Assembly (NCBI GenBank): GCA_965234725.1
Contig: CBDDUX010000067.1
Location: forward strand, 1-39,070
Origin: Thermoplasmatota archaeon
Lineage (GTDB): Archaea; Thermoplasmatota; Penumbrarchaeia; Penumbrarchaeales; Penumbrarchaeaceae
Length of the DNA: 39,070 bases
Direction: 5' to 3'
This document shows positions 3,173-35,500 of the stretch, piece after piece (the stretch's first letter is position 1; each line of letters starts with the position of its first letter). Under the pieces are notes generated by a model. The model did not search any database and had not been told where the DNA came from. It saw only the letters and a program-made list of their open reading frames with translations. A program made the translations under genes and the position numbers.

Positions 3173-6100
3173 ATGAGAAGGATCATGGCCTTCCTTCTTT
3201 CATTATTGCTATCCATACCGTTTTCTGCGGGAGTAAATAGCGATAGCCTTGATGCCCCTTCCCCATTACTGATCATCCCTGAGGGCCTGAACGGTCATGA
3301 ACCGATAGAGATCGATGGGAACGACGATCTGAACTCTACTGTTATCACAGAAGGGTGGGGTGGATCGGGGACAGTTGAGGACCCTTACGTTATCAAGGAC
3401 CTCTTCATCGATGGTAATGGGACCACTTACTGTTTGAGGATAATAAATATAACTATTCCTTTGAAAGTTTTGAATTGCACATTCATGAATTCCTCATATG
3501 TGTTTGCCAGCCTACACAATGGTTCAATTCAGATCATCAATTCATACCAGGTTACGATCACCAGGATCAGATCATACAATAATTATTACGGGATCTATCT
3601 CACCCGATCTTCCTTTATTTTTCTGGATGGCTCCACATTCCTAAATAATACTCGTGGGATAGATGTAATCTACTCGAATAATTTAACGATCTATGATTGT
3701 AATATCAATGATTCATCTTTTGAGAATATTGATATTTCTTTCTCAAAAGATGTATTCATATCGGGAATATCAGCAAGAGATGTAAGCAGGTATGGATGTC
3801 AGATTGACAACTCGGTTAATGTAACGATCAGATCATCTAACTATAGTGAATCAGAACTGGGTATCCGTATCTACCTTTCATCTTTTGTTAAAGTAATAGA
3901 TTGCATATTAACCGGTAATATGTATTGCATTAGATTGGACAACGCTGATAATGCATACATTGATGGGATCATATTGAATTATGGCAATTATCCTTATTTC
4001 AGAGGTTTTGAACTCTCTCAATCCAGAGATGTAGTAATCAAGAATGTTAAATCAAATGGAAGAGATAATTTATTCATTATAAACTCCTGTTCCATAGTTG
4101 CGATCTCTGATGTTCAATCCATAACATCTCAGAGAAGCATTATGGTCCAATGGAGCGAGGATGTTACCATTTCGAATGCTAACTCGATCTCATCGGAGGG
4201 CGAGGGTATCTTGGTTATTAATTCAAAAAGGATATCCATCACAGACAGCATTTTCATGAGCAGGTACAGAACACTGACCCTTTCCGGATGTGAAGATGTA
4301 ACATTTGGGAGGAGTCATCTGAGCAGTAATTTGGAGATATGTGTCATTATTGAATACAATGTGGGACCAGTCAGGTTCGAGGATCTTACAATAGAATCAC
4401 TCAATTATCCCTCATTTACATTTTATTCCATTCTTAACAACATACATTTTTCTAACATCTCAATAACAGGACAGGGAATGAATATCAAAGATCTTTTCTA
4501 TAATCTTCTATATCCACAATATCAGGGATATCTAAACAATTCCTTCAGGAATATCTCACTCAATGACAGACCCCTCCATATTTCCTGGAATGAGGACCTC
4601 GGAGGAAGGACCCTGACAGGGAATTTCTCGCAAATAATCCTTTTCAACTCGACCAATGCTATTTTCAACGGGCACAGTCTCATGAATTCGATCTCAGGAG
4701 TTACCGCCTATGATATCAGCAATATCTCCTTCCTAAATATGACGACCTCTGAAAACGATAAATATGGTTTTTTCTTGATCCATTCAAGGAATATCCGGAT
4801 AAGAAATTCAGAATCATTAGATAACGTTGGTATAGAGCAATATTTTTCGGATAATGTCTCAATTACCGGGAACAAATTCAAAGAGAACTGGAAATCCATC
4901 TATTCATCTTATTCTAATAATATACATGTGGAGGATAACAAATTCGATCATTCTGGATACATTGGTTTCTTAGGGCAGCAGATCATGTATTCTACAAATC
5001 ATTCCTCCAAGAGGAATGTATACACTGGTCCTGGCCATGCGGCAATTCAGATCAGCAGATCTGAAGTTACATTCATTGAAGAGTCTATTGAGACCCTCGA
5101 TTACGGGATCCTTGCATTCGACGATTCCAAGATGGATATTGAGGGATCTTCATTCAGTAATATCAAATTTTCAGCTATAGATATTTCCGACACAACAAGT
5201 GGCCAGAATGTCTCGGACTGCTCATTCATGGATTGTCAAATAGGAATCCATTGCGTTCAAACATCATATGTGAACATTGTTGACTCCTCTTTCGATTACT
5301 GTGAAACCGGAGTATCATTTTACACTTCAACGAACCTTACCATTGCCGATTCCATATTCTATGGAAACGATAAGGGGATAGCTCTTTCATCCAGTGATGG
5401 AGGTTTCATTAGTGGATCACTTTTCCTGGGGAATTATAATCATGGGATTGAATCTATAAATTCAAGATCATTTATTGTCTGGAATAACTCCTTCATATGG
5501 AACAATGGGATAACGGACACACCGGATCCGGAACGACAACAATGTCATGATAATTCGAAGAAGAATACCTGGTATAACAGAGAACTCTTTTCGGGAAACC
5601 ACTGGTCCGAACTAACATCCCCTGATGCAGATCTCAATAAGATAGTTGACATGTCTTACAAGATCGAAAGTGGCGGGGATTGGAGCAAATACCCACTTGT
5701 ATTCTCTCCGGTAGACCTTATCTCTCCTCCTATGAACCTTACAGCTACTGCTAATACAAACAATGTTTATCTCATCTGGGAGAAACCTCAATTGGAATAT
5801 CATGGAAAAACAATAGGATACAAGATCTACAGAGGGGCCTCACCCGATAGAATGGAAGAGATCTGGTCCCAACCAGGTCAATTAACAGAATTCACAGATC
5901 TGACACCGACTCCAGGTATTCTCTATTTCTATCTGGTCAGGGCTTATTGTTCATTCGGAATAGGTACACCTTCGAATATTGTTGAGGCAATATCCGACGT
6001 AACTCCTCCTGTGATAACCATTACCTCGCCTTCGATGGGTAAAGGATTCAATGTTAGGGATGTCCTTGTCCAGTGGATCGCAGAGGACCCTGAATCTAAC

Positions 6101-7759
6101 ATTGACGAATTCCTGCTCTCCCTCGATGGTGGTTCTTCTCTCCATCTTAAGAACGATTCCATGCTTCTCCTTGAAGGTTTGAATGAAGGATTGCATAGGG
6201 TCACCATCATTGCGATCAATGATAAGGATCTGGAAAGCAGTGCGAATGTTTCATTCATTATAGATGTCTCCAAACCGGACCTCTGGCTATCAGAAGAAGG
6301 TCCGATCTATTCCTCGGATCAGATGGTCGATATTTCCTGGACTTCCGATGATTCGATCACAGGGGTATATGGTTATTCCTACCGCATTGACGATGGAATT
6401 TGGCACAGTAACGGTATGTCGGAAACCCTCAGAACCTACCTCGTTGAAGGCCAACATAATGTGACGATATCATGCTTCGACATGGTCGGAAACACTGTTG
6501 AAGTCAATGCTGTAATATTTGTGGATATTACTGAACCGGAGGTTGAAATTACAAGTCCCGAACCTGGTTCTTACCTGAATTTCAAAAACATATCTCTCAC
6601 CCTCGATCTCAATGACGAGTTATCTGGAATATTTTTTCTCGAATATGACATCGACTCGACAGGTGAGGTCAAGGTCCAAGCGGCAGTAGAATTGATACTA
6701 CCATACCTTGCGGAAGGTCCTCATGAAGTTGTTGTCAGGTTATTCGATCGTTGCCTGAATTCCGCTGAGACTTCTATAAATTTCATTATAGATAGAACAT
6801 CTCCGAACATCGGCGATTTCGGACCACAGGGCACTGCCGTTCACTTGAATTCCAATGTTTTCATTGTGTTCAATGAAACCATTGACTATTCGGATTTCCG
6901 GTTCTCGATAGATATGAATGGAACATCCTCCTGGGATGGGAATCGTTTCATTTTCAATCCATATATCGATATGACTCCCGGAAATATGTATCAGGTCGAG
7001 GTCCATGTGAAGGACCTTGCAGGAAACGGTCCTATTTCCAGAAGATGGTACTTCACCACTACAGATAGGGGCACCGTGATCGGACATGTAATTGACAGGA
7101 ATGGTATTCCAATCAGTGGATTGCAAGTTGAGGTCGATGGAGAACCGATCACACAAACTGATGGATATGGCCATTTCTCAATGGATGTTCAAATGGGTGA
7201 GAGGAAGATAACGATCTCCGGACCCTCTATCACTAAGATTGATGTGGAAGTATTTGTCATGGCGGATTCCACGTCGGATCTTGGGGTATTGGAACCGAAG
7301 AACCCTTCGAATGATAATAGGATCCAGATGGGAACCTTGTTGATCGGATCTGTTATTGTTCTCATCATTATGTTATTAGCAATCTTGGTAATTGTGATCA
7401 AGAAGAGGAGGGATTCCAGGTTCGTTTTCTTCATAGATGATGAGAGACCGCATAAAGGAGGGAGTGGTGATGATGATCAGTTCGAGGAATTCTGGATCGA
7501 TCTCGGAGGTGAGGTCCTCACAGACCACTATCAGGTAATTGGTGTTCCCAGGTCCTCCAATCAACAGGAATTGAAGAAGGCATACCGAATGATGGCAGGC
7601 AAGTATCATCCTGACAGGGCCCTAATAGGTGGGGAGATGGGTGAGGAAGAGCTTTCGGACATGATGGCATTGTTGAACGAAGCGAAAGAGGTCCTTCTGA
7701 ATCCGGTGAGGAGGAACATGTACGATGCCTGGCTTCACGATAGGGAGCTGGAGATGTGA
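3173..7759 (+). CDS. Large surface protein: beta-helix (NosD-like), FN3, Ig-like repeats, TM helix and a cytoplasmic DnaJ (J) domain
   Basis: Signal peptide; beta-helix repeats ending in GNHWSE; FN3-like PPMNLTA..LIWEKP..GYKIYRG; D.T.P Ig-like repeats; TM segment GTLLIGSVIVLIIMLLAILVIVI-KKRR; C-terminal DHYQVIGV...LKKAYR...YHPDR...LNEAKEVL.NP..R..YD. Confidence 0.9.
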   Translation: MRRIMAFLLSLLLSIPFSAGVNSDSLDAPSPLLIIPEGLNGHEPIEIDGNDDLNSTVITEGWGGSGTVEDPYVIKDLFIDGNGTTYCLRIINITIPLKVLNCTFMNSSYVFASLHNGSIQIINSYQVTITRIRSYNNYYGIYLTRSSFIFLDGSTFLNNTRGIDVIYSNNLTIYDCNINDSSFENIDISFSKDVFISGISARDVSRYGCQIDNSVNVTIRSSNYSESELGIRIYLSSFVKVIDCILTGNMYCIRLDNADNAYIDGIILNYGNYPYFRGFELSQSRDVVIKNVKSNGRDNLFIINSCSIVAISDVQSITSQRSIMVQWSEDVTISNANSISSEGEGILVINSKRISITDSIFMSRYRTLTLSGCEDVTFGRSHLSSNLEICVIIEYNVGPVRFEDLTIESLNYPSFTFYSILNNIHFSNISITGQGMNIKDLFYNLLYPQYQGYLNNSFRNISLNDRPLHISWNEDLGGRTLTGNFSQIILFNSTNAIFNGHSLMNSISGVTAYDISNISFLNMTTSENDKYGFFLIHSRNIRIRNSESLDNVGIEQYFSDNVSITGNKFKENWKSIYSSYSNNIHVEDNKFDHSGYIGFLGQQIMYSTNHSSKRNVYTGPGHAAIQISRSEVTFIEESIETLDYGILAFDDSKMDIEGSSFSNIKFSAIDISDTTSGQNVSDCSFMDCQIGIHCVQTSYVNIVDSSFDYCETGVSFYTSTNLTIADSIFYGNDKGIALSSSDGGFISGSLFLGNYNHGIESINSRSFIVWNNSFIWNNGITDTPDPERQQCHDNSKKNTWYNRELFSGNHWSELTSPDADLNKIVDMSYKIESGGDWSKYPLVFSPVDLISPPMNLTATANTNNVYLIWEKPQLEYHGKTIGYKIYRGASPDRMEEIWSQPGQLTEFTDLTPTPGILYFYLVRAYCSFGIGTPSNIVEAISDVTPPVITITSPSMGKGFNVRDVLVQWIAEDPESNIDEFLLSLDGGSSLHLKNDSMLLLEGLNEGLHRVTIIAINDKDLESSANVSFIIDVSKPDLWLSEEGPIYSSDQMVDISWTSDDSITGVYGYSYRIDDGIWHSNGMSETLRTYLVEGQHNVTISCFDMVGNTVEVNAVIFVDITEPEVEITSPEPGSYLNFKNISLTLDLNDELSGIFFLEYDIDSTGEVKVQAAVELILPYLAEGPHEVVVRLFDRCLNSAETSINFIIDRTSPNIGDFGPQGTAVHLNSNVFIVFNETIDYSDFRFSIDMNGTSSWDGNRFIFNPYIDMTPGNMYQVEVHVKDLAGNGPISRRWYFTTTDRGTVIGHVIDRNGIPISGLQVEVDGEPITQTDGYGHFSMDVQMGERKITISGPSITKIDVEVFVMADSTSDLGVLEPKNPSNDNRIQMGTLLIGSVIVLIIMLLAILVIVIKKRRDSRFVFFIDDERPHKGGSGDDDQFEEFWIDLGGEVLTDHYQVIGVPRSSNQQELKKAYRMMAGKYHPDRALIGGEMGEEELSDMMALLNEAKEVLLNPVRRNMYDAWLHDRELEM

Positions 7760-10592: not shown

Positions 10593-11753
10593 ATGGTCTC
10601 GGTAAAGGAAAGGACGGTCAAGGGAAAGAAATACCTCTACATATCCGCCACATCGTCATACAAAGGTCAGAAGAAGAGATTCGAGAAATCCCTGGGTCCT
10701 GTCGATTCCGATCCTAAGGAAATTGAGCATAAGACGGAGTTCTATTCTGACCTACTTGAACTTAAATCGGTTCTCTTCAAGATCTATCTTGAGGCCAAGG
10801 ACAAGGAATTCAAGTATCTCCCTCGTTTCTATTCGATCTACCTTTCAATGATCAGGAACTTCTATTCCCAGTTCCTTTCTGACCTGTATCCTTCTGAGCT
10901 GGAAAAATACAAGGAAGTACAGAATGTAAAGTATGTTCACCATACAACTGCGATGGAAGGAAATACCCTGACTCTGAGAGAAGCCGCCCTCATAATAGAA
11001 GACGGGATTGCACCAAAAGGAAAACAACTTAGGGAGATACACGAGGTTGAGAACTTCAAGAAGGTTCTCAGGTATCTCAGATCTTATAAAGGGGACGTCT
11101 CTCTCCCGTTTATCAAGAAGATCCATTATATGGTCCAGCAAAATATTGATGACGAGCAGGCCGGCAATCTCAGAAGGATAGAGGTGGGGGTCGTTGGTTC
11201 CAATTTCGAACCGCCTCCGGCCATATTCGTCGAGGATGAGATCAAAGAACTGGTAGAATGGTACAAGGATAATTCCGATCATCTGCACCCTTTCGAACTT
11301 GCAGGTATCTTTCATTACAGATTGGTCCAGATCCATCCTTTCGTAGATGGGAACGGGAGAGTGGCCAGAGAGCTTCTGAACTTCATCCTTGAGAGGAACG
11401 GGTATCCCCCTACTATATTGGAGGTGACCGATCGTGAGGATTATCTGAAGAGGCTCCAGAAAGCGGATGACGGTGATCCGGCTCCATTCCTTGAGCTTCT
11501 GGCGATCAAGATGATCACAGATTATGAGGATGTCATCATGTCATTTCAAAAGAGGGCCTTAAAAGATATAGAAACCCTGACAGACGGAGAGATGGCAGAG
11601 ATATTCCAGATGCTTGTATGGTTCATGCATTTGATGAGGGAGTTCGAGGTTGATATCCCTGCAGAAGCTAGGGAGAGGATCTCTTCGATCAAACGCTTCT
11701 TCGAGAGGGGAATGATCCATTCTGATCGAAATCAGATCATTCCAGAAACCTGA
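10593..11753 (+). CDS. Fic-domain protein (AMP transferase family)
   Basis: Canonical HPFVDGNGRVAR motif, upstream inhibitory-type TTAMEGN motif, and a basic N-terminal GKKYLY segment. Confidence 0.93.
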   Translation: MVSVKERTVKGKKYLYISATSSYKGQKKRFEKSLGPVDSDPKEIEHKTEFYSDLLELKSVLFKIYLEAKDKEFKYLPRFYSIYLSMIRNFYSQFLSDLYPSELEKYKEVQNVKYVHHTTAMEGNTLTLREAALIIEDGIAPKGKQLREIHEVENFKKVLRYLRSYKGDVSLPFIKKIHYMVQQNIDDEQAGNLRRIEVGVVGSNFEPPPAIFVEDEIKELVEWYKDNSDHLHPFELAGIFHYRLVQIHPFVDGNGRVARELLNFILERNGYPPTILEVTDREDYLKRLQKADDGDPAPFLELLAIKMITDYEDVIMSFQKRALKDIETLTDGEMAEIFQMLVWFMHLMREFEVDIPAEARERISSIKRFFERGMIHSDRNQIIPET

Positions 11754-11834: not shown

Positions 11835-12161
11835 CTATGCCCGGTGTTTCCTATACCAGGCTGGAAGACCGATGTACCTGTAGTGGTCCTCTATCTGTTT
11901 TGAATAGATCGAGGCATAGAACTTGTTAAACTCTCCAACATGGAGAAGTCCTTTCTTTGTTGGGACTATCTTGTAGGTCCTCTCATCCCTTTCTATTTCG
12001 ATATAACCCTCGGAACCAAGGTGGTCCAGTATCCTTTCTGTCATATTATGGTTAGATCTAATGTGATGCATAATCTCCGATTTTGAAAGACCTATTGTTG
12101 ATTCAAGAAGAAGAAGCTCCAGTTTGCTTTCAAGGTCCTTCTGCTGAGGATCGATACCCAT
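11835..12161 (-). CDS. Winged-helix DNA-binding protein (108 aa)
   Basis: wHTH pattern GLSKSEIMHHI...ILDHLGSEGYI...YKIVPTKKG. Start moved to MGIDPQ (12161) because the longer ORF (to 12314) overlaps the upstream gene. Confidence 0.75.
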   Translation of the reverse strand: MGIDPQQKDLESKLELLLLESTIGLSKSEIMHHIRSNHNMTERILDHLGSEGYIEIERDERTYKIVPTKKGLLHVGEFNKFYASIYSKQIEDHYRYIGLPAWYRKHRA

Positions 12162-12246
12162 GGCCGAAGCTAATAGATTGAGCACAATGCATGAATAAAG
12201 GTTCATGTCCTTGTAGCTCCTCTTCTCCACGGTAATTACACTCCTT

Positions 12247-13092
12247 TCAAGGAAGTACATTCGGAAGCTCGGGCACAAATGGAATGAACTCGTACTTTCC
12301 GGTAGGTAGTTCAACAGCTATCTGAAGATTGATCCTTTGGTTATTGTGGCCTTTTAGCCAGATCTTTCCTTCTATTATCTTATCATATACCTCATTATCA
12401 ATACCCGCATAACTTGATGCTCCTTTTATGATCATGACAACCCGATGAGGGTAAGCTCTACCATTGGCTGTGATATCATCCAGGTCCCTTACAATGTTCT
12501 TAAGATCATCCATGGTTGGAGACCTTTTATATTCTCTTAGATAGAGAGAATATCCCGGATAACCGATCTTGAACATTCTGTAAATTATTGATGGCTTCTT
12601 CTGGATGAATGCATCAAAATGATATCTGTTCCCTTTTCGACCAACTGCATAAGCATCCTTTCTCAGTATCTCGGGTCGATTCTTCAGCAATCTGGTAAAG
12701 GTCTTATTGTTCTCTTTTAGATATTCCAGAAACCTGTCTGTCTTGTTCTTGCCTTTGGGGATCGAGTATTCTGGTGGTCCTTCCCTCATCGCTTTGATGG
12801 CAGAATACCTGAATGTGGATTCCTTCAAGAACCTTCTAAGTAGTGAAAGTAATCTCGCTGTAATGATGCCGGTTACAAAAAGTGATGCCAGCACCATTAC
12901 CATGAAGAAATTACCCTGTGAAAGGACTGCCAGAAGCAGGATGAAATACAGTATGATCGAGAACCATACGAAATAAAGAGCGAATTTTGATAAGAACAGG
13001 ATCTTCTCCGATCGTTCGGTGATCTCCTCAGCAAGGTTGAACGTTCCGGAGATAGGGTCCTCGACTCCTCTGTACAGTTGCCATCTTTTCAT
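12247..13092 (-). CDS. Membrane protein (2 N-terminal TM helices) with a possible degenerate PD-(D/E)XK/Mrr-like domain
   Basis: Two hydrophobic helices at about aa 30-80, then GRKGNRYHFDAFI...LYLREYKRSPTMDDL, which resembles the restriction-endonuclease-like core. GGTGA SD upstream. The fold call is by eye. Confidence 0.7.
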   Translation of the reverse strand: MKRWQLYRGVEDPISGTFNLAEEITERSEKILFLSKFALYFVWFSIILYFILLLAVLSQGNFFMVMVLASLFVTGIITARLLSLLRRFLKESTFRYSAIKAMREGPPEYSIPKGKNKTDRFLEYLKENNKTFTRLLKNRPEILRKDAYAVGRKGNRYHFDAFIQKKPSIIYRMFKIGYPGYSLYLREYKRSPTMDDLKNIVRDLDDITANGRAYPHRVVMIIKGASSYAGIDNEVYDKIIEGKIWLKGHNNQRINLQIAVELPTGKYEFIPFVPELPNVLP

Positions 13093-25951: not shown

Positions 25952-26389
25952 ATGAATTATAATTCACCCTTGTATAAACTCCAAATCTTTTGGGAGGATC
26001 ATTCAGATGGGACCTATTGCGTGGTGGGGTTCATTGGTCAATTTGGATATTGGTCAACAGAATACAGTAGGCTTGCCTGAGGGGTTGTGACAAGGTCCTG
26101 ATGATCATAGAGTAGATGAAGGAAGTAAATTTTTCAATCCAGTTGAAATGAAATGGATCCCCCACCCTCTTGATATCAATACCTAATATCATCAATATCG
26201 GGATTCGACAATCATAATCAATAAAGGAAAAAAAGGTCCATATTAAGAAATGACGGACCGAAATCCATAAATATACCCTTATGTAGATTCGGGTTTTTTA
26301 TGTTGTTGTTATATAACAATAAGCTCATTTTTAATATTGCCCGAAAGAAAAAGGTGAGACATTGATCGGAGGTCGAATGGCCGGCCTCA

Positions 26390-26499
26390 GACCGATGGGG
26401 CTCTGGACGTGGGGTTAAGAAGAGAGAAATGAATGCGTGAATGAACATGGAAGAGCTGTCAAGGCCCTCCCTCCGCCCCGGTGGGGGAGGGCCGCTATT
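26390..26499. repeat. ~110-nt non-coding element, copy 1 (direct repeat of 37643-37750), ending in a GC-rich hairpin
   Basis: GACCGATGG..CTCTGGACGTGGGGTTAAGAAGAGAGA..TGAATGCGTGAATGAACATGGAAGAGCTG.CAAGGCCCTCCC...GGGGAGGGCCGCTATT is shared with copy 2. Confidence 0.92.
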
Positions 26500-26527
26500 G
26501 TTCATGTTCTAATCCAATATGATATGA

Positions 26528-26683: not shown

Positions 26684-26989
26684 TTGGCAGGAGTAGGGTC
26701 AAAGGAAAGGCTGTCAAAATACGACGTTGGCGTCGCAGTTCTTTCCTACCTAGTCAAGATAAAAGAGGAGGGGAGGTCCAGGGCAACCACTAGAGAGATA
26801 AGTAGAAAACCATCGGAATTCATAGAGAGCACCCAAAGACAGCAGAGGATCAAGGAGATGCTTGAAGGATTCGAGGAGCAAGGATTCGTAAAATCTGAAA
26901 CCTTCGATATGGGAACTGTCTGGGAAATAACAGATGAAGGTTACAGCTGGTACAAGACAATTGCCAAGCAATTCATGTCAATTTTCTAA
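26684..26989 (+). CDS. Winged-helix DNA-binding protein (101 aa)
   Basis: VLSYL...ATTREIS...RIKEMLEGFEEQGFV...WEITDEG. TTG start after GGGGG, with A-rich BRE and ATATATA about 40 nt upstream. Confidence 0.8.
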   Translation: MAGVGSKERLSKYDVGVAVLSYLVKIKEEGRSRATTREISRKPSEFIESTQRQQRIKEMLEGFEEQGFVKSETFDMGTVWEITDEGYSWYKTIAKQFMSIF

Positions 26990-27004: not shown

Positions 27005-30000
27005 TCAACCTATTTTTTCTGAGTGATCATCTTCTTGTGTCCCTTGAAGGGGACCTTTATTTTCTTTCCGATTTTTTAAGACCATCAAACCAAAGAATAC
27101 CAAGCAGATAATCAAGAAGAGACTTAAGATAGTCAACATTAAACCTACAGGACGTTGGTCCTCTCTTTCACTTCCTTCTCCATCCAGAGGTATATCAGTA
27201 GATGATTTCACTGTAATATTGAATGTTATCGATGTAATATCTTTTCCATCTGTTACACTTATTTCAATCGTATTATTTCCGATATCTTCAGGTCCAGGTT
27301 CCCAGGTCATAATCGATGTTGAACTGGAAAGGTCCACTCCATCTGGACTTTGGACTAATTCCAATACAAGAGCAGATTGATCAATCAAATCAGGGTCCAT
27401 TGTGCTCAATTCAATGGTCAATTTCTTTCCAACATCTATCTCCCAGTCACCTGGATCAGTGAGTGTGGGGGGCGTGTTCACATGGAAACTGTGGACTCCA
27501 TCTTGGCAGTAACCGGATGACCTTTGATCCTTTGGAACCACTGTCCAGAAGTACTCTTCTCCTTTGAGCAATATTTCAGGTTTATATTCTGTAATCACCG
27601 TTGACTCCAGGATCAAATGCTCTTCCTTCAATTCTTCTACTTCTACCCAGTTTGTTCCGATATATAGATCGAAGAGGACCTCCTCTCCTTCCGGATCGGC
27701 CCCCTCCCATTTCAATACGATATCAGATGATTTGTATGACTTTCCATGTTCCGGTGATAGTAGTCTTGCAGTAGGAGCCGGATCGGGAACAATGAACAGG
27801 TCGAAATCATGACGGATCAATACATTTCCATCCGAGGCCTGGACTGTAATTGTCGTGAAAAATGTATTGTTCTGGAGCATTGTCAAACCCTTTGTATCTG
27901 CTTCCCAGGAGATCTCTCCGGAGAATGGATCGATGAAGATCGAAGAATATGGGAAGGAACTGATCGAATATTCCAACACATCCATAGAGTCTTGATCGAA
28001 TGCTTCCATCTGGAAACTGAATTCCTCTCCTTCTCTGAGAGTAGTTCCGTTGAAAACTTTTTTCCATACTGGCTTGTCATTTGTATTTAATACAGTCAGT
28101 GTGAAATTGTGGAAATCGGTTCCCTCCTTTCCGTCCGAGATCGAAATATTCACAAAGTATGAACCTACATCCTCATTTCTTGGTATTCCAGAAAGCCTGC
28201 GGGTATCCTTATTGAACTCCAACCAATTGGCATTTGTCTTCATAGTCCAGTTCAAGCTATCTCCATCAGGATCATAAGCAGAATAACTAATGAGATAATA
28301 ATCATCTTCAATGGCCTCAATATCATCCAATGTGGAGATTGAGGGATCTCTATTGGTTTGATATATATTTAGGACAAATCTTGACCAATCCCAACCACCA
28401 TTTCCATCATTGACAGATACATTGATATGATATTCTCCAGTATGTTCGCTAGTTGGTGTTCCACTTAATATCCCAGTATGAGGGCCCATTTCAAGGAATG
28501 GGACTTTCGGCGAATAGGACCATGAAATTACACCCAGCCCATCCTGGTCTGAGTTATAATCCGAATAGTAGAATTCTCCCGTACTTATCTCCTCGATATC
28601 ATCGGTCAAAATCACTGGTGGTATATTGATTACAGTAAGAATGAATTCATGTCTATCAAAATGTCCCAGATCATCTGATATGTTGATCATTATTTGATAT
28701 TCACCAACGTGGGAATTTGTTGGAGTTCCCGAAAGGATTTTCTTATTGCTATTCCAGGTTAACCAGGAAGAAGCCGATCCAAGATCGATATCCCATTGTT
28801 GAGGCTCAATAATCCCTCTATAACTGTATTTTACTTCATAGAACTGGTTTTCTGTGGCCTCTTGATCATCTTCCTGGGGAAATAATGTAATATGATCTTG
28901 CACCAGGAGTTTAGAAAAGATGTTAGGACTCTTCCTTGAATAAACAGTAATATTCTTCCACGGTATCGAATCACATGTCGGATGCAGTGTATCTATACAA
29001 GATCCAAGTGTGAAATTCCCCCGATAATGGCCAGTATTCTTTCCAGTCTCTTTTAACATCAGAGGTAATTGAGACTCCGTCCCTTCTGTTTCGATGATAG
29101 CAAATGCCTGATCAATATGCGATGTATTCCCATCTATACCAATCAATTCAACGAATATCCTACCTCCTTTCAATGCCTTTGTGATCGGAGTGTCGAATGA
29201 ATTGTTAGGATAAAGCCTGATAGATGTAGTAGTTAGCTGTTCAGAAGCTTTATTAGTTGAAATGATAAACACTTTTCCTCGATTGTATCTACTTAATGTG
29301 TTGTCAAATTGTGGCATTCCGACCTTGATCTCTGGATAACCATCACCATTGATATCTCCAGCCATGGATAGTTCATTGAACCCAGCAGGAATATCATTCG
29401 TATCAGTCCCAAAGAATATGAAATCCGAGTCTGTTAAACTCATGTTCCCTTTCCAGTTTGTCGAGTTACCATTTATTACATATACATTCCCATCTTGGAT
29501 ATTATTGTAACTATGATAAGGTGCTCCTATCGCGATGTCATCATACCCATCGAGGTTCAGATCACCGACTATGGTCACAGATGTTCCTGCATTTTCAGTA
29601 TCAGATCCCAAATATATCCTATCAGCTGTATCTACATTGGTATTCTCATCAAATTCCGTTTTCTTTCCAAGGAAAAGATATACCTTTCCATTAAAATCAT
29701 CAGAGCGATTTGCTCCGATTAGAATATCATTGAATCCATCACCATTGATGTCTCCTCTCCCTCCAACCATGCTGCCTTGATCCTCTATTTTAGTGCATAG
29801 AAAGGATCCATTGCAATATGTTTCGATATTCCCCCCCTTTTCCCAACCTTTACTTCTCCCCAATAACAGGTAATTTTCCACTTTGGAAGAAATTTTTGAA
29901 TAATTGGATAAATAACGACTTCCAATAATCATATCATCGAATCCATCACCATTGATGTCACCAAGTCCGGTCCCAGTACCCGGCCAACCCAGCATCTCCA

Positions 30001-30772
30001 TCTGTTGTGAACCCTCATATGAGTAATGCTGTGAGCTCAAGACCTCATTATTGACCCATCCAATACTCCTTCCAAAAACGATGTAGACGATACCTGCATC
30101 AATCTTTCCCTCTGCATCATGGCCGTAGGCACCGATGATGAAATCATCATATGAATCATTATTTAGATCACCCACGCCAGTGGTTAACCATCCAGCTCCA
30201 TCACCCTGGTTTTCACCGATGAAAGAAGCATCAGCATTTGAGGTATTGATCTCCTTCTGCCAACCATCATCTTTTCCAAAGAAAAGGTACACCTTTCCTC
30301 TATCAATCTTTCCACCTGAGTTGAAATTTCCATCACACATCAATATATCATCAAATCCATCACCATTGATATCTCCTGCAATTGAACCAAAACCAAGTTT
30401 TGCCCCCCCTGGGGTTTCCATCACGAATTTCACATCTGCATTTGATACAGAATCATCCCTTTTCAATCCCACACCCCTCCCAAAGGTCAGAAAAACCAAA
30501 GAAGGATTTATTCCAGGTCCCATTGCATCAGCTATCACGTCATCAAAACCATCCCCATTGACATCTCCAGATCCAAGACTGAACCTTCCATAGGTCATAC
30601 TTCCGATATCACCTTCAATACTGCACCAGGCGTTTGACATTGGATTGATCTGTGTTGTGAATATTTTTTCGAATATATCATGAACCTCTTCCATATTTGT
30701 CTCATTAAGAGCAATAGAAATTGAGGATATTACTGATAGAGTTGCCACTATTAATCCTATATTCAATCTCAT
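27005..30772 (-). CDS. Surface protein with 7 FG-GAP (integrin-alpha-like) repeats, cadherin/Ig-like stalk and C-terminal TM helix
   Basis: Seven GD(V/I/L)NxDG(F/Y)xD-type repeats with G.VY.F.G strands, LSGTP...VG.Y.I.I.VSD Ig repeats, signal peptide and C-terminal TM helix. Confidence 0.93.
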   Translation of the reverse strand: MRLNIGLIVATLSVISSISIALNETNMEEVHDIFEKIFTTQINPMSNAWCSIEGDIGSMTYGRFSLGSGDVNGDGFDDVIADAMGPGINPSLVFLTFGRGVGLKRDDSVSNADVKFVMETPGGAKLGFGSIAGDINGDGFDDILMCDGNFNSGGKIDRGKVYLFFGKDDGWQKEINTSNADASFIGENQGDGAGWLTTGVGDLNNDSYDDFIIGAYGHDAEGKIDAGIVYIVFGRSIGWVNNEVLSSQHYSYEGSQQMEMLGWPGTGTGLGDINGDGFDDMIIGSRYLSNYSKISSKVENYLLLGRSKGWEKGGNIETYCNGSFLCTKIEDQGSMVGGRGDINGDGFNDILIGANRSDDFNGKVYLFLGKKTEFDENTNVDTADRIYLGSDTENAGTSVTIVGDLNLDGYDDIAIGAPYHSYNNIQDGNVYVINGNSTNWKGNMSLTDSDFIFFGTDTNDIPAGFNELSMAGDINGDGYPEIKVGMPQFDNTLSRYNRGKVFIISTNKASEQLTTTSIRLYPNNSFDTPITKALKGGRIFVELIGIDGNTSHIDQAFAIIETEGTESQLPLMLKETGKNTGHYRGNFTLGSCIDTLHPTCDSIPWKNITVYSRKSPNIFSKLLVQDHITLFPQEDDQEATENQFYEVKYSYRGIIEPQQWDIDLGSASSWLTWNSNKKILSGTPTNSHVGEYQIMINISDDLGHFDRHEFILTVINIPPVILTDDIEEISTGEFYYSDYNSDQDGLGVISWSYSPKVPFLEMGPHTGILSGTPTSEHTGEYHINVSVNDGNGGWDWSRFVLNIYQTNRDPSISTLDDIEAIEDDYYLISYSAYDPDGDSLNWTMKTNANWLEFNKDTRRLSGIPRNEDVGSYFVNISISDGKEGTDFHNFTLTVLNTNDKPVWKKVFNGTTLREGEEFSFQMEAFDQDSMDVLEYSISSFPYSSIFIDPFSGEISWEADTKGLTMLQNNTFFTTITVQASDGNVLIRHDFDLFIVPDPAPTARLLSPEHGKSYKSSDIVLKWEGADPEGEEVLFDLYIGTNWVEVEELKEEHLILESTVITEYKPEILLKGEEYFWTVVPKDQRSSGYCQDGVHSFHVNTPPTLTDPGDWEIDVGKKLTIELSTMDPDLIDQSALVLELVQSPDGVDLSSSTSIMTWEPGPEDIGNNTIEISVTDGKDITSITFNITVKSSTDIPLDGEGSEREDQRPVGLMLTILSLFLIICLVFFGLMVLKNRKENKGPLQGTQEDDHSEKIG

Positions 30773-30805: not shown

Positions 30806-31723
30806 TTATCCTGTCCATATGACTTTGAACATATTGCCCTCCAGTTGGATCAGACTGATCGTGTATTCTCCTCTCACCTTTGCCCGGGAATGCTTTGCAA
30901 ATTCAATTGCATCCTTGGTGAATCCTTTTGAGGATAATATTCCGATCTCGAGTGGATATTTTGACCAGTTCAAGACTTCTTCACAATCGGCTTTGAACTC
31001 ACCAATATCTTTGACCGTGACCTCTTTCTTATAATATTTCATAAGAATTACTTCGGTCCTGAAGAAGAACCTCAAGATCATCAGAACGAATATGGTAAGT
31101 ACAATGAACTCAAGGACTCCTAGTAGAATGAAATTGATGATCGAGTCAAATTGAGAATATATTATTGCTTCAACAAAGATGGTAGCGAGCAAGAACAGGA
31201 TCAATGCTATGGTGACAATGTAAATTAGCGAATTCTGATTGTTCTTGTAATAGATATCAAACGTATGTGATTTCCCATTTCTTTTTACAGTTTTCTTGAG
31301 GAATCCTTTGAAATCATTGATCCCAAGATAGAAAACATCGTCAAGCCTGTTGATCAGGTCCTCCAATATCTTATCCTTGTTAACAGGGAACATCTCCATC
31401 TTGACCTTGAACCTGATGGGTTTGATCTTGTCAGTGATCTTCATGAACGGTTTGAAGAACTTCAGGACTGATGTTAAAAGGATCAGACCAAAGAAGAATA
31501 CTGAAAAAGCACCGAAGATGCACAATTCATCCAGGATCCAGGTATCAGGATCGATCGCCCACAGAATAAATACCGCTGTGAAAAAAACAACCGATAGTCC
31601 CTCCATAAGTATGGAGAAAAGGAAAAATGGTATCTTGCTCGATATCTTAAAAAGGTCGTCTCCTAGCGTAGTTACCTTTGTGGTATCAAATGCTTGAAAG
31701 GAGTTGTCCTTCTTATCTGACAC
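30806..31723 (-). CDS. 4-TM membrane protein with an Mrr-like (PD-(D/E)XK) domain interrupted by a TM hairpin
   Basis: GKSHTFDIY, then two TM helices, then VILMKYYKKEVTVKDI...GILSSKGFTKDAIEFAK (Mrr-type S.xGFT..A motif). GTG start with TATA-like TTATAAT about 25-30 nt upstream. Confidence 0.78.
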   Translation of the reverse strand: MSDKKDNSFQAFDTTKVTTLGDDLFKISSKIPFFLFSILMEGLSVVFFTAVFILWAIDPDTWILDELCIFGAFSVFFFGLILLTSVLKFFKPFMKITDKIKPIRFKVKMEMFPVNKDKILEDLINRLDDVFYLGINDFKGFLKKTVKRNGKSHTFDIYYKNNQNSLIYIVTIALILFLLATIFVEAIIYSQFDSIINFILLGVLEFIVLTIFVLMILRFFFRTEVILMKYYKKEVTVKDIGEFKADCEEVLNWSKYPLEIGILSSKGFTKDAIEFAKHSRAKVRGEYTISLIQLEGNMFKVIWTG

Positions 31724-31750
31724 AGTAGTACATTACATTCCTGTATATTA

Positions 31751-31785
31751 TAAGGGGGTGTGGAATTCAATTCCACACCTCTTTA
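31751..31785. promoter_or_regulatory. Palindromic candidate operator between divergent promoters
   Basis: Perfect 11-1-11 inverted repeat GGTGTGGAATT-C-AATTCCACACC at 31757-31779, extending imperfectly to 31751-31785. Confidence 0.65.
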
Positions 31786-31866
31786 ATTGTGATACAATGG
31801 TGTTCACTATCATTCATTCCGGGTATATATCCCGATTAGGACAATATCCTTCTCGAGGTGTATCAA

Positions 31867-31956
31867 ATGAGCAACATCGGAATGAAAACAAACGGAAATG
31901 ACGCATGTGTATGGCTGAGAAATGTGAACAAATGCTTCCCTGTCTATAGCAGGTGA
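31867..31956 (+). CDS. Array peptide 1: MSNIGMKTNGNDACVWLRNVNKCFPVYSR (29 aa)
   Basis: GAGGTG SD at 31855-31860, TATA-like TATATAT at 31824-31830, and the shared C-terminal motif. Confidence 0.85.
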   Translation: MSNIGMKTNGNDACVWLRNVNKCFPVYSR

Positions 31957-31992
31957 ATGAACGGGAGATCATCGTTATAGGAGGGATGCAAA

Positions 31993-32067
31993 ATGAATGG
32001 AAAAGAAAATGTAAATGATGTCTGGCTGAGAAATGTGAACAAATCCTTCCCTGTTTATTACAGGTGA
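31993..32067 (+). CDS. Array peptide 2: MNGKENVNDVWLRNVNKSFPVYYR (24 aa)
   Basis: GGAGG SD about 8 nt upstream and the shared C-terminal motif. Confidence 0.85.
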   Translation: MNGKENVNDVWLRNVNKSFPVYYR

Positions 32068-32097
32068 AAGAAACCGAGGTAGTAAGGAGGGAAGAAA

Positions 32098-32187
32098 ATG
32101 AGCAATATGGGAATGAGATCATGTGGAAACGGCGCGGAACCCTGGATCAGGAACGTCAACAAGAGCTATCCGATCTACTTCAGGTGA
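32098..32187 (+). CDS. Array peptide 3: MSNMGMRSCGNGAEPWIRNVNKSYPIYFR (29 aa)
   Basis: AGGAGG SD. The motif is kept through synonymous codon changes, and the MSNxGM...GN N-terminus is shared with peptide 1. Confidence 0.85.
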   Translation: MSNMGMRSCGNGAEPWIRNVNKSYPIYFR

Positions 32188-32211
32188 TCGGAAAAGAAGG
32201 TGGTGAAAAAG

Positions 32212-32280
32212 ATGGAAATCTCGGGTTCGGAAAAATGGTTGAGGAACGTGAACAGATATTACCCTCTCTTCATGAGGTAG
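32212..32280 (+). CDS. Array peptide 4: MEISGSEKWLRNVNRYYPLFMR (22 aa)
   Basis: GGTGGTGA SD, shared C-terminal motif, TAG stop. Confidence 0.83.
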   Translation: MEISGSEKWLRNVNRYYPLFMR

Positions 32281-32307
32281 TATCGGTAACCAGCAGGAGG
32301 GAAGTAA

Positions 32308-32376
32308 ATGGAAGAAAACGTGTCAACGGTCTGCATGAGAAATCTCAGAAAAAATTATCCAGTATTTCCAAGGTAA
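32308..32376 (+). CDS. Array peptide 5 (divergent): MEENVSTVCMRNLRKNYPVFPR (22 aa)
   Basis: AGGAGG SD. RN....YPVF.R-stop falls in the same register as peptides 1-4. TAA stop. Confidence 0.75.
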   Translation: MEENVSTVCMRNLRKNYPVFPR

Positions 32377-32428
32377 TCAGGTTAAATATTCACTATCCAA
32401 TGTTATTCGAGGATGGATCCCAAAAAAG

Positions 32429-32497
32429 TGATCTCGATCGATCCTTCATGGAAGGGATGGAGGATCGATCGGATCATACAACTTATGATCATTTTTT
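32429..32497 (+). terminator. Double hairpin plus T-tract closing the peptide array
   Basis: CGATCGATCCTTCAT (32435-32449) pairs with ATGGAGGATCGATCG (32457-32471). It is followed by GATCATA-CAACT-TATGATC (32472-32490) and TTTTTT (32492-32497). Confidence 0.6.
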
Positions 32498-32535
32498 CGT
32501 TGATAATAATAAAACTTTTTTAAGGGGGTTGAAGA

Positions 32536-35500
32536 ATGAATAAGATCTTGTATTTAATTGCGGCCATTTCAATGATAACATTACCCTTTGGGGTATTGGA
32601 TCAGAATGCAGATAGCAGTAATGTTTTACAAACCGAACCCTGTCGAGGACTAAACGAATGGGATTCAAGTCATTCTATCTCCGAGGCTGTGACCGCTTCT
32701 TTCTTGGGCCAGAATAATGAGACAAAATCAGGATACTCAACATCAATCGTCGGTGATCTGGACGGTGATGGATATGACGATATTGCCATATCTGCAATCG
32801 AAAGCAATATCAGTTCAGGACACTCAGGTCAGGTGTATATATATTTTGGAAGAAAAACGGGATGGCAGTATAATATGTCCCTTCTTGATGCGGATGCGTC
32901 ATTTCACGGTGAACGAACTGGTGACAGGATCGGTACATCTGTATCCGGAGCGGGTGATGTAAACAGGGATGGATTCGAGGACTTACTCATTGGGACCCAT
33001 GCTTATCCCGGTGGGAATAATAAAGGAAAAACTTACCTATTTTTCGGAAAGCCAAAGGACCAGTGGAATATGGGTGTGAACATAAGCAGTTCCGATGCAT
33101 CATTTATTGGACAATCCCAGGGGGACATGGCGGGTGAGGTTTCTGGTGTGGGTGATGTCAACGATGATGGTTTCTCTGATTTCATGATAGGCGCATCGAG
33201 GCATGGATCCGGGAAAGGAATAAGTTATCTATTTTTTGGAAAAGATTCTGGATGGTCCAATGAGATGGGTGTCACAACAGCAAACGCATCTTACGTAGGG
33301 GAATCAGAGGGAGACATGTCAGGTTACAGGATTTGCGGTGTGGGGAATGTCAACCGGGATGATTACGATGATATTTTGATCAGCGCCCCTGGTAGAAATG
33401 AAAACCAGGGAAAGACCTATCTGGTCCTTGGAATGGAAACCGGTTGGTCAAAAAACAATCCCTTATCTGTAGCTAATGCTTCATTTATTGGTGAAGTTAA
33501 AGGGGATCGATCCGGGATGGCAATTTCCGGATGGGGTGATGCGAATGGTGATGGTATAGATGATATCCTCATTGGGGCGGGTTATAATGATGAGGGTGGT
33601 AAGGATTCGGGTCAATCATACCTGATCTTCGGAAGGCTCTATGGATGGAAGAAGGATATGTTACTTTCAGATTCTGATGCATCCTTCATAGGATCTCCAG
33701 GAAGTCTTTCAGGATGGGCATTATCAATATCAGGAGATATCAACAGTGATACATTGGATGACCTTGTCATTAGCGGTCCTGATTACATTATCGGGACGGA
33801 AAAGATTGGAATTGTCTATATGGTCTATGGCAGGGAATCCAATTGGAGCATGGACATGGACCTCGTAAATTCTAATGCAGTCTTTATCGGTGAGAATGTT
33901 TCAGATTCCTTCGGATATTCTCTATCAACAAGCGGAGATGTAAATGGTGATGGTAATGAAGATATCCTTATCGGAGCACCTTTAAATGATAAGGGTGGAC
34001 TGGATTCGGGTCAAACATATTTGGTCCTGGGAAAAGGTTTCTCCTGGAGGATGAATACACCTCTCTCTCTCGCTGATTCCTCTTTCGTAGGAGAAAATCC
34101 AAGAGATTTCTTTGGATATGAATGTGCTGTAGTTGGGGATGTAAATGGTGACGGATTCAATGATTGGGTAGTATGTGCATACCTTAATGACGAATCATAT
34201 GAGGATGCGGGCCAGGTATACCTATTTCTAGGGAGAGAAAATAATTGGGGACATGATTTTAACATATCCAATGCAGATGCTTCTTTCCTGGGAGAGAATC
34301 ATGGAGATAATATCGGTCCAATGTGTGGTTCTGGAGATGTTAATAATGACGGATTCGATGATTTCTTGATAAGTTCACCATGGAATGATCAAAGTGGGAC
34401 AAATGCAGGGAAAGTATACCTTATATTAGGTAAGAAGAACGGTTGGGAAATGGACACGCCTCTTTCAGAAGCTGATGCTTCCTTTTTAGGAGAGAACGCT
34501 GAAGATGAGGCAGGAATAGGGACCAGTATTCAAGGAGATGTAAACGGAGACGGATTCGATGATATTCTCATAGGTGCTCCATATAATGACGAAAGTATCA
34601 ACGATGCAGGAAAAACATATCTATTATTCGGAAAGGATGGAGGATGGGTTAACAATATTAGCCTTTCCCAGGCTGATGCATCTTATCTTGGAGTTAATTC
34701 GGGAGCATCATCAGGGATGACTCCATGCATTCAAGGAGATATAAATGGAGATGGATTTGATGACATCCTCATACCAAATCGTCCTGGTCTTGATTCACGG
34801 ATTGGTGAAGTATATTTGATTTTTGGAAAGAGTTTCGGATTTATGAAAAACAAGTCATTGTTATTGTCGGATGCTTCATTTATTGAAGAATTTCAGGCAG
34901 ATCGCTTTGGTGGAATGGAAGGTCCAGCTGGAGATATAAATGGTGATGGACTTGATGATATTTTAATAACTGCTGGGACAGCCACTAGTAATGGAAAAGC
35001 GACGGGAAAAGCTTATCTCTATTTTGGAAGGAGCTCCGGCTGGAAAATGAAGATCAATGTTTCTGAAGCAGATGTCACATTTATTGGGGAGAACGATGGT
35101 GATTATATCGTTGTAGCAACAGGAGATGGAGATCTTAATGATGACGGATATGACGATATTATCATTGGAGCTCCCTACAATAGTAATGCTGGGTATCTGT
35201 ATGGCAACACTTATGTTATCTTCGGACAACCTAGTGGTTATCCAAGGAATTATTCACTGAGCGAGGCGGATGCTTCTTTTGTGGGCTTGAGATATTATAA
35301 TTTGGCCGGAATGTCTTGTTATATTTTGGGAGATGTGAATAATGATGGATTCGATGACTTCTTTACAACTTCAATATTCAATAATAATGGAGGTTTATAT
35401 GAAGGGAAGGGATATCTTATATACGGTCGAAAATTTCTTGGAGCAAGACCACAGATCACTCTCAACAAGACCTACATTTCAAGTCAACTTGACGGCAATA

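Follow-up and report, generated by a model that had tools for sequence, protein, structure and literature searches.

A tandem array of micro-peptide genes linked to a predicted winged-helix regulator and a membrane protein in a Thermoplasmatota archaeon

A 39,070-nucleotide stretch of Thermoplasmatota DNA (the window, in whose positions all feature coordinates are given unless another locus is named) contains five consecutive micro-peptide genes whose shared C-terminal core is conserved as peptide. An earlier reading, made from the sequence only, had treated this array as free-standing. We find that it is accompanied by a divergently transcribed membrane-protein gene, the gene for a winged-helix regulator and a palindromic operator. 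Our tentative interpretation is that the peptides are translated, remain in the cytoplasm and form part of a three-part transcription switch. As to how they might act in it, we tentatively favor a SinI-like role: intracellular anti-regulators that would copy the tail of the regulator.

No family library describes the array or the module, nor does the literature searched, which consisted mostly of papers outside subscription and without their supplements. We lean, a little past even, toward one of two outcomes: an undescribed archaeal switch, in which peptides titrate the regulator or free it from a dead-nuclease membrane dock and so control surface proteins, or the first archaeal termination-arrest peptides, acting as an inducible trap for tRNA and ribosomes. 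Either, if true, would add to archaeal small-protein regulation a kind that the literature searched does not contain. To our knowledge, regulation by peptides has hardly been studied in archaea, and annotation usually passes over genes this small. Because the peptides come with candidate partners and a 23-bp operator, the system could be rebuilt from three small synthetic parts even though the organism is uncultured.

The micro-peptide array and its conservation

The five genes lie on the forward strand at 31867..31956 (29 aa, stop TGA), 31993..32067 (24 aa, TGA), 32098..32187 (29 aa, TGA), 32212..32280 (22 aa counted from the ATG behind its Shine-Dalgarno site, TAG) and 32308..32376 (22 aa, TAA), the last having the most diverged core. 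Their description in the sequence-only reading was confirmed throughout: five consecutive ORFs of 22–29 aa, with the translations and stops given, a Shine-Dalgarno-like site before each and a gap-free alignment of the last 14 residues (the core). The five-ORF array is not due to chance. Core motif matches in all six frames of the whole 3.54-Mb genome (G000) are confined to these five ORFs, the next-best match to a peptide HMM has an E value of 0.27, and among 1,993 Shine-Dalgarno-led ORFs of 18–45 codons the array is the only tandem run of at least three. The cores carry a charge of +3 to +4. The peptides have no signal sequence, as had been stated, their longest hydrophobic run being five residues. 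They also belong to no known family by Pfam, PDB-sequence and Rfam searches: Pfam gave zero matches to the five peptides at E 0.01, the peptide profile found nothing below E 0.99 among PDB sequences, and the array matched no Rfam family at its threshold, two miRNA matches falling far below theirs.

We scanned the genome and its Thermoplasmatota relatives with a motif and HMM, as had been proposed earlier. Besides G000 itself, the profile found arrays in two further genomes, which brings the count to 3 of the 37 genomes in the class; a sample of 401 genomes from the phylum yielded the same three, a narrow range that limits the finding. One of these relatives (G001) has five orthologous peptide genes; the other (G021) has four and a longer, divergent fifth. 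A degenerate form of the pattern matched seven metagenome stretches, five by chance and two real: L034, where three peptide genes are complete and a fourth runs off the contig, and L031, which has a single complete gene, the terminal part of another and a longer gene of a second type (type B). Other phyla were covered through the partner proteins only. The type-B genes, 42–43 aa, close the arrays of G021 (L003:1907-2038, +) and L031 (L031:118-246, +) and are not present in G000 or G001. Their products keep Arg3, Pro10, an aromatic residue at position 12 and the terminal Arg, next to a conserved N-terminal part of their own, and one of the two genes ends in AGA. The single viral match to the degenerate pattern lies at 1001-1041 of a viral contig (L050).

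Conservation was assessed over the 18 complete type-A cores from G000, G001, G021, L034 and L031. Arg3, Asn4, Pro10 and Arg14 never vary, and every core has Phe or Tyr at positions 9 and 12; Cys is missing from 12 of the 18 peptides. Identity at the first, second and third codon positions is 0.79, 0.76 and 0.56, respectively. The dN/dS-type comparison among copies that had been suggested was run as pN/pS and gave pN of 0.21 against pS of 0.66 over all pairs, which are not independent of one another, and 0.15 against 0.52 for the G000–G001 orthologues, the core of gene 1 differing by one non-synonymous and two synonymous changes. In the other two frames, pS/pN is 0.22/0.36 and 0.39/0.28. The cores are under purifying selection, in the peptide frame only, in agreement with the earlier claim that selection acts on the peptide and not on a DNA repeat. 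The type of stop codon is free, with TGA, TAG and TAA all occurring, the N-termini are free and the distance from core to stop is fixed, so a changing stop codon at a constant position, claimed from the five genes, holds for all 18 cores.

Two other ways of reading the DNA were tried and rejected. A 159-aa frame (32064-32543, +) overlaps the array and is open in both G000 and G001, and a gene caller could annotate it instead of peptides 3–5. Its pN/pS is 0.74, against 0.35 in the peptide frame, and it is interrupted by stops in G021, L034 and L031, behaving as a shadow frame. A read-through polyprotein fails on the spacers, which contain in-frame stops; they have equal lengths in G000 and G001, all multiples of three, and are multiples of three in those two genomes only. 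Since the spacers of G021 are 15–17 nt long, the frame relation is not kept. No consensus RNA structure was found over the cores. Frame-specific constraint, a shadow frame that is broken elsewhere and the lack of a shared RNA structure together identify the peptide as the selected unit.

The codon of the terminal Arg is itself fixed, AGG being used in 18 of 18 cores. Third-position changes number 0 at Arg14, compared with 2, 3 and 7 at Arg3, Asn4 and Pro10, and across the genome 38 of the 129 Arg codons before a stop are AGG, a share of 62% where a C-ending codon precedes. G000 yielded one tRNA-Arg(CCT) gene. We rejected a DNA junction motif at the gene ends, as the C before AGG is accounted for by genome-wide context (2,404 of 2,797); that context leaves AGG itself unaccounted for. 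It is plausible that a free C-terminal Arg is important. The fixed codon leaves open that the Arg matters on the ribosome, as peptidyl-tRNA, and not in the released peptide.

Promoters, operator and partner genes

Upstream of the array lies a TATA-like box (31823..31830, +), presumably its promoter element, whose position before the first ATG is kept in G000, G001, G021 and L034; the box had been noted before, and its conservation at four loci bears it out. The divergent membrane-protein gene has a TATA-like box of its own (31746..31753, −), also of presumed function, and its transcript is probably leaderless. At the other end of the array, a hairpin (32430..32475, +; z −3.7) is a candidate transcript end. 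Of the hairpin and T-tract proposed earlier, the hairpin is real, but a bacterial-type terminator scan returned 0 sites, the T run lies ~16 nt beyond the stem and the counterpart in G001 folds no better than shuffles (z −0.4). The G000 genome holds no second copy of the hairpin, and the arrays of G021 and L031 are followed by unrelated hairpins. The proposal that the array is a transcription unit of its own is supported.

Between the divergent promoters is a 23-bp palindrome (31757..31779), a predicted binding site for the winged-helix protein. G001, G021 and L034 have conserved copies of it, and it directly adjoins the TATA-like box of the membrane-protein gene. Its distance to the TATA-like box of the array is 44 nt in G000 and G001 and 23 nt in G021 and L034, a shift of two helical turns. 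With a matrix built from the four array-side copies, the array-side operator is the top-scoring site of the whole G000 genome. The three best sites there (38.5, 28.0 and 25.4 bits) are all intergenic and adjoin TATA-like boxes; the fourth-best (18.5 bits) lies within a gene. The two secondary sites (C22:6466-6488 and C25:3170-3192) each precede a gene for a secreted protein, of FG-GAP or NosD-like beta-helix type. Both are kept in G001 (C131:10652 and C132:24514), one before the orthologous gene and one in a homologous promoter before a different secreted protein. A genome without the module (G003) has one operator match, at three mismatches and inside a gene, and a search of module-less genomes for orthologous promoters free of the operator returned short matches only. 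The operator copies may mark a candidate small regulon, and their co-occurrence with the winged-helix protein suggests that this protein reads them.

The putative regulator is a 101-aa winged-helix protein of PadR/MarR-like fold (26684..26989, +), encoded convergently with the membrane-protein gene and 75–94% identical among 16 relatives. Foldseek places its structural model with the PadR/MarR-like proteins (E about 0.002, TM-score up to 0.68), and it matched no family at curated thresholds. With PadR/MarR-type regulators (for example, 1xma, 3elk and AF1382, 2qvo) it has in common the fold and a palindromic site beside promoters, whereas its fixed pairing with a membrane protein and a peptide array sets it apart. 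In G000 and G001 alone, the regulator gene is separated from the membrane-protein gene by a gene for an FG-GAP/Ig surface protein (27005..30772, −), which is probably co-transcribed with the membrane-protein gene; it is absent at that place in G021, G023 and L034. Upstream of the regulator gene, a GC-rich, inverted-repeat-like stretch (26218-26505, −) holds a 95-codon ORF without a family match and is possibly a repeat element.

Of the 37 genomes of the class, four contain the membrane protein, and the same four contain the regulator. The array is present in three of those four, and in the fourth (G023) the contig ends inside the membrane-protein gene; contig L034 shows the same linkage. As the four genomes are close kin, this co-occurrence is a matter of linkage and not a statistical test, and it may reflect a single gain. 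In a survey of neighboring genes, another of the checks proposed earlier, the divergent membrane protein was constant and the gene 3′ of the array varied, being an FG-GAP surface protein in G000 and G001 and a convergent gene in G021 and L031. The array is therefore tied to the genes upstream of it.

The membrane protein itself (305 aa; 30806..31723, −), divergent from the array, combines four predicted membrane-spanning helices with a restriction-endonuclease-like (PD-(D/E)xK) domain. In its structural model (pLDDT 66), two N-terminal membrane helices are followed by the nuclease-like domain, into which a second helical pair is inserted, and the loops between the membrane helices are short. 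The best fold match is AF1548 (1y88; Z 10.3, rmsd 3.7, 109 aligned residues), followed by NucS (2vld; Z 8.5) and Can2. The best Foldseek E value was 0.009, with no match at E 0.001, and Pfam and PADLOC assigned no family. Judged by this model, the protein appears to carry a restriction-endonuclease-like fold. Its core fold is that of Mrr-like and other restriction-endonuclease-fold proteins (AF1548, NucS and the Can2/Card1 nuclease domains), and its Atlas leads at 0.80–0.89 include Mrr_cat clusters; unlike the Mrr-like families (Pfam Mrr_cat, NA-iREase1), it has four membrane helices, two of them inserted in the nuclease core, and no Pfam match. Among 14 relatives, with the catalytic motif placed by the model, Asp156 is acidic in 13 and Lys229 basic in 13, and the complete D...(D/E/Q)xK set was not found in any. 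Position 227, two before the motif Lys, is acidic or Gln in 0 of 14, so the domain is probably not a nuclease, or at least an inactive one.

A profile search returned 23 relatives of the membrane protein, and the DNA context was read for one of them, at L053. A convergent winged-helix gene at this locus is 46% identical to the regulator, and a similar palindrome lies beside the TATA box of the membrane-protein gene, in the same layout as here. The divergent slot is occupied by a small Asn/Gln-rich ORF, which lacks a standard start, together with an 88-aa membrane ORF. The Asn/Gln-rich ORF (L053:5631-5804, −) has two internal repeats and a strong Shine-Dalgarno site, without an ATG, GTG or TTG start, and its Atlas leads are hypothetical proteins of 40–61 aa scoring below 0.9. 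Its likeness to the peptides is a weak lead (shuffle p 0.0055, for a pair chosen by eye), and the peptide profile found nothing at E 1 in the genome concerned. When the regulator profile was run against 401 genomes of the class of L053, two more genomes emerged (G929 and G1013), in which the regulator's partner is a membrane protein with two helices instead of four, recognized by hhalign with probabilities of 97% and 76%, and an NYN ribonuclease gene occupies the divergent slot. None of these three distant loci that share the regulator and the membrane protein has type-A-like peptides. Their gene content indicates that the regulator–membrane pair is older than the array, which is one of several occupants of the slot. 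The stretch around the pair in G929 (L061, G929:C4:145000-157000), a Thermoplasmatota genome, resembles a defense island, with genes for a viperin-like radical SAM protein, a CARF–winged-helix protein, two NYN proteins, a DUF5678 protein and a Mokosh-like helicase.

Candidate functions of the peptides

The class of ligand, inhibitor or antidote, put forward before any partner had been named, is still the most likely one, and candidate partners can now be given. Within it we rank mimicry of the regulator's tail first. The winged-helix protein would bind the palindrome as a dimer and control the membrane-protein gene, the peptide array and the surface-protein genes, and the membrane protein, with its inactive-looking nuclease domain, would serve as a sensor or as a membrane dock for the regulator. 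In what is the weakest step of this scheme, the basic core of the peptides would copy the C-terminal helix of the regulator, so that a peptide could either stand in for the second subunit, in the manner of SinI and SinR, or compete with the regulator tail for the site that holds it. A feedback loop would result, in which having several gene copies would increase the dose or adjust affinity and the N-termini would be spacers that can be dispensed with. If this is correct, the peptides would be a minimal dominant-negative inhibitor of a winged-helix regulator, or would show what inactive nuclease folds anchored in a membrane can be used for.

In PadR/MarR-type proteins the C-terminal helix is commonly the dimer interface, and it is for this reason, together with the precedent of SinI, that tail mimicry is ranked first. 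The SinI–SinR heterodimer forms through residues conserved between the two proteins, with SinI disabling SinR (PMC3163267). SinI of Bacillus subtilis is a small protein that resembles the C-terminal oligomerization helices of its regulator and is encoded beside it, and the regulon includes surface or matrix genes; here, too, the array and the regulator share a locus, as SinI-type anti-regulators would, and the candidate regulon comprises secreted and surface proteins. The two systems differ in that SinI and SinR share two helices, as opposed to about nine residues of one helix in our case, and in that the helix-turn-helix domain of SinR belongs to another family than the winged helix (PMC3163267). 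The mimics proposed here are 22–31 aa long, stand four to five in a row and have a membrane protein as third partner. Family searches gave no homology to SinI or SinR: the five peptides matched no Pfam family, and no SinI or SinR model is among the 16 families listed for the regulator.

The resemblance consists of a shared pattern, W-x-[KR]-x-[IV]-x-[KR]-x-[FY], which starts 14 residues from the stop in the cores and 13 in the regulator. The likeness was noticed beforehand, and the tests of it are therefore post hoc. Aligned by hhalign, the first nine core positions of the peptide profile fall on the last helix of the regulator, weakly (E 0.082, probability 0.7%). When the peptide profile is anchored at C-termini, the regulator ranks 3rd, 6th and 4th of 2,491 proteins over 9, 12 and 13 positions, respectively; unanchored, 48 of the 2,491 score as well as it does. 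Such a window would turn up by chance in the two partner proteins with a probability of 0.018, 0.15 and 0.13 for the same three lengths. In the reverse direction, a nine-position profile of the regulator tail places peptides 2, 3 and 1 at the top of 1,891 Shine-Dalgarno-led short ORFs and peptide 4 sixth, with peptide 5 only 40th; the ranks of peptide 5 span 40 to 783. For 15 of the 18 cores, no more than 8 of 1,886 background ORFs do equally well. In a single-sequence comparison, random six-frame segments within 8–19 kb score level with the best peptide. Pro10, the aromatic residue at 12 and Arg14 have no counterpart in the regulator tail, and proline is a helix breaker. The two type-B peptides show no resemblance to the tail, and the fixity of the AGG codon is not explained by tail mimicry. 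We also considered whether the peptides resemble the conserved motif of the membrane protein and dropped the idea, since profile alignment gave nothing.

It is the AGG codon that gives weight to the main rival, termination arrest, which we nevertheless consider unlikely. Ribosomes would stall at the stop with peptidyl-tRNA-Arg in the P site, and the induced five-gene mRNA would trap ribosomes and the single tRNA-Arg(CCU), slowing growth. Such peptides would be expected to be conserved only in the stretch next to the stop, at a set distance from it; here that stretch is the last 14 residues, and the N-termini and the type of stop vary freely. AGG in 18 of 18 cores without a third-position change, against the background of 38 in 129, and the NYN ribonuclease gene in the same slot at two distant loci point the same way. 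SpeFL, too, stalls while its final Arg occupies the P site; it depends on aromatic residues close to its C-terminus and works with any of the three stops (10.1101/604074). Overexpression of TnaC halts growth through the trapping of one tRNA (PMC11890864). SpeFL, TnaC and PepNL are, like the genes described here, short ORFs with conserved residues at a fixed distance from the stop, but they are single bacterial leader ORFs that control a downstream gene, as known arrest peptides mostly are (PMC11890864), whereas here the ORFs form a tandem archaeal array. No co-oriented downstream gene is fixed, the gene being convergent in G021 and L031. The SpeFL sensor motif HIRRXXH occurs in 0 of 18 peptides, and the aromatic residues are spaced differently (−9, −7, −5 and −4 in SpeFL; −14, −6 and −3 here). 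One type-B peptide ends in AGA, the AGG signal comes from few independent lineages, and arrest leaves the likeness to the regulator tail unexplained. If it did apply, these would be the first arrest peptides from archaea.

We also doubt, and place next, that the peptides are ligands of the membrane protein, acting from inside or exported by another route as a cell-density signal. A free C-terminal P-x-aromatic-x-R would be recognized, and the likeness to the regulator tail would be coincidence. The strict linkage to the membrane protein and the C-terminal clustering of invariant residues fit such a ligand, as do the degenerate nuclease motif of that protein and the secreted and surface proteins encoded by the operator-bearing genes, which are typical outputs of signaling. 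A signal sequence is missing, however, as is any transporter or protease conserved across the loci; the model offers only short loops between the membrane helices, and distant relatives of the membrane protein come without peptides. The HbYX proteasome-activating C-terminal peptides are similar in being archaeal and in having a short motif with aromatics near a free C-terminus. They differ from the peptides here, in which the penultimate residue is Tyr in 2 of 18 (Tyr or Phe in 5 of 18) and the fixed residues are at −1, −3 and −5.

The variable cargo of the slot, which is the NYN nuclease in G929 and G1013 and the Asn/Gln-rich ORF with a small membrane protein in G401, would also be expected if the peptides were stress or defense effectors that hit an unrelated target, the regulator and membrane protein merely controlling a cargo slot. 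The position of the G929 copy among viperin-like, CARF and Mokosh-like helicase genes accords with this, and the G929 regulator matches the PADLOC model LmuC at 6e-7. We consider it quite improbable for the array, because the neighborhoods in the clade of G000 consist of housekeeping and surface-protein genes, no relative was found on plasmids and no relative of the regulator in viral contigs; PADLOC, run on three proteins of the G000 window, gave 0 families for the membrane protein and for the regulator only a weak match to LmuC (E 0.023).

RiPP pathways often have short precursors, encoded in tandem, that share a conserved aromatic-rich segment, and PqqA-like precursors have an ExxxY core. 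The sequence-only reading had accordingly listed RiPP-like precursors as an option while seeing no modifying enzyme in the window. The second observation was borne out and extends to the neighbors at the other loci, and the first finds no support: the genes next to the array in G000, G001, G021, L031 and L034 include no modifying enzyme, transporter or protease, although the two metagenome contigs (L031 and L034) are only 1.6 kb long, which limits the reading of their neighbors. There is also no conserved leader, Cys is absent from 12 of 18 peptides, the PqqA-type motif occurs in 0 of 18, and the two extra operator sites precede secreted proteins and not peptide-maturation enzymes. We thus consider it very unlikely that the peptides are RiPP precursors matured by a modifying enzyme encoded elsewhere in the genome. 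Finally, it is extremely improbable that no peptides are made and that the locus is a DNA or RNA repeat or a single protein in the 159-aa frame, which is open in G000 and G001 across spacers in multiples of three, given the pN/pS of 0.74 against 0.35, the stops at the three other loci and the lack of RNA structure or an Rfam match.

Other genes of the window

At 10593-11753 (+) and 11835-13092 (−), a Fic-domain gene adjoins a weak winged-helix ORF and a 281-aa ORF without a Pfam match. Further upstream, at 3173-7759 (+), the window encodes a 1,528-aa protein with beta-helix, fn3 and Ig-like domains and a C-terminal DnaJ domain, an unusual pairing of surface domains with a J-domain in one protein.
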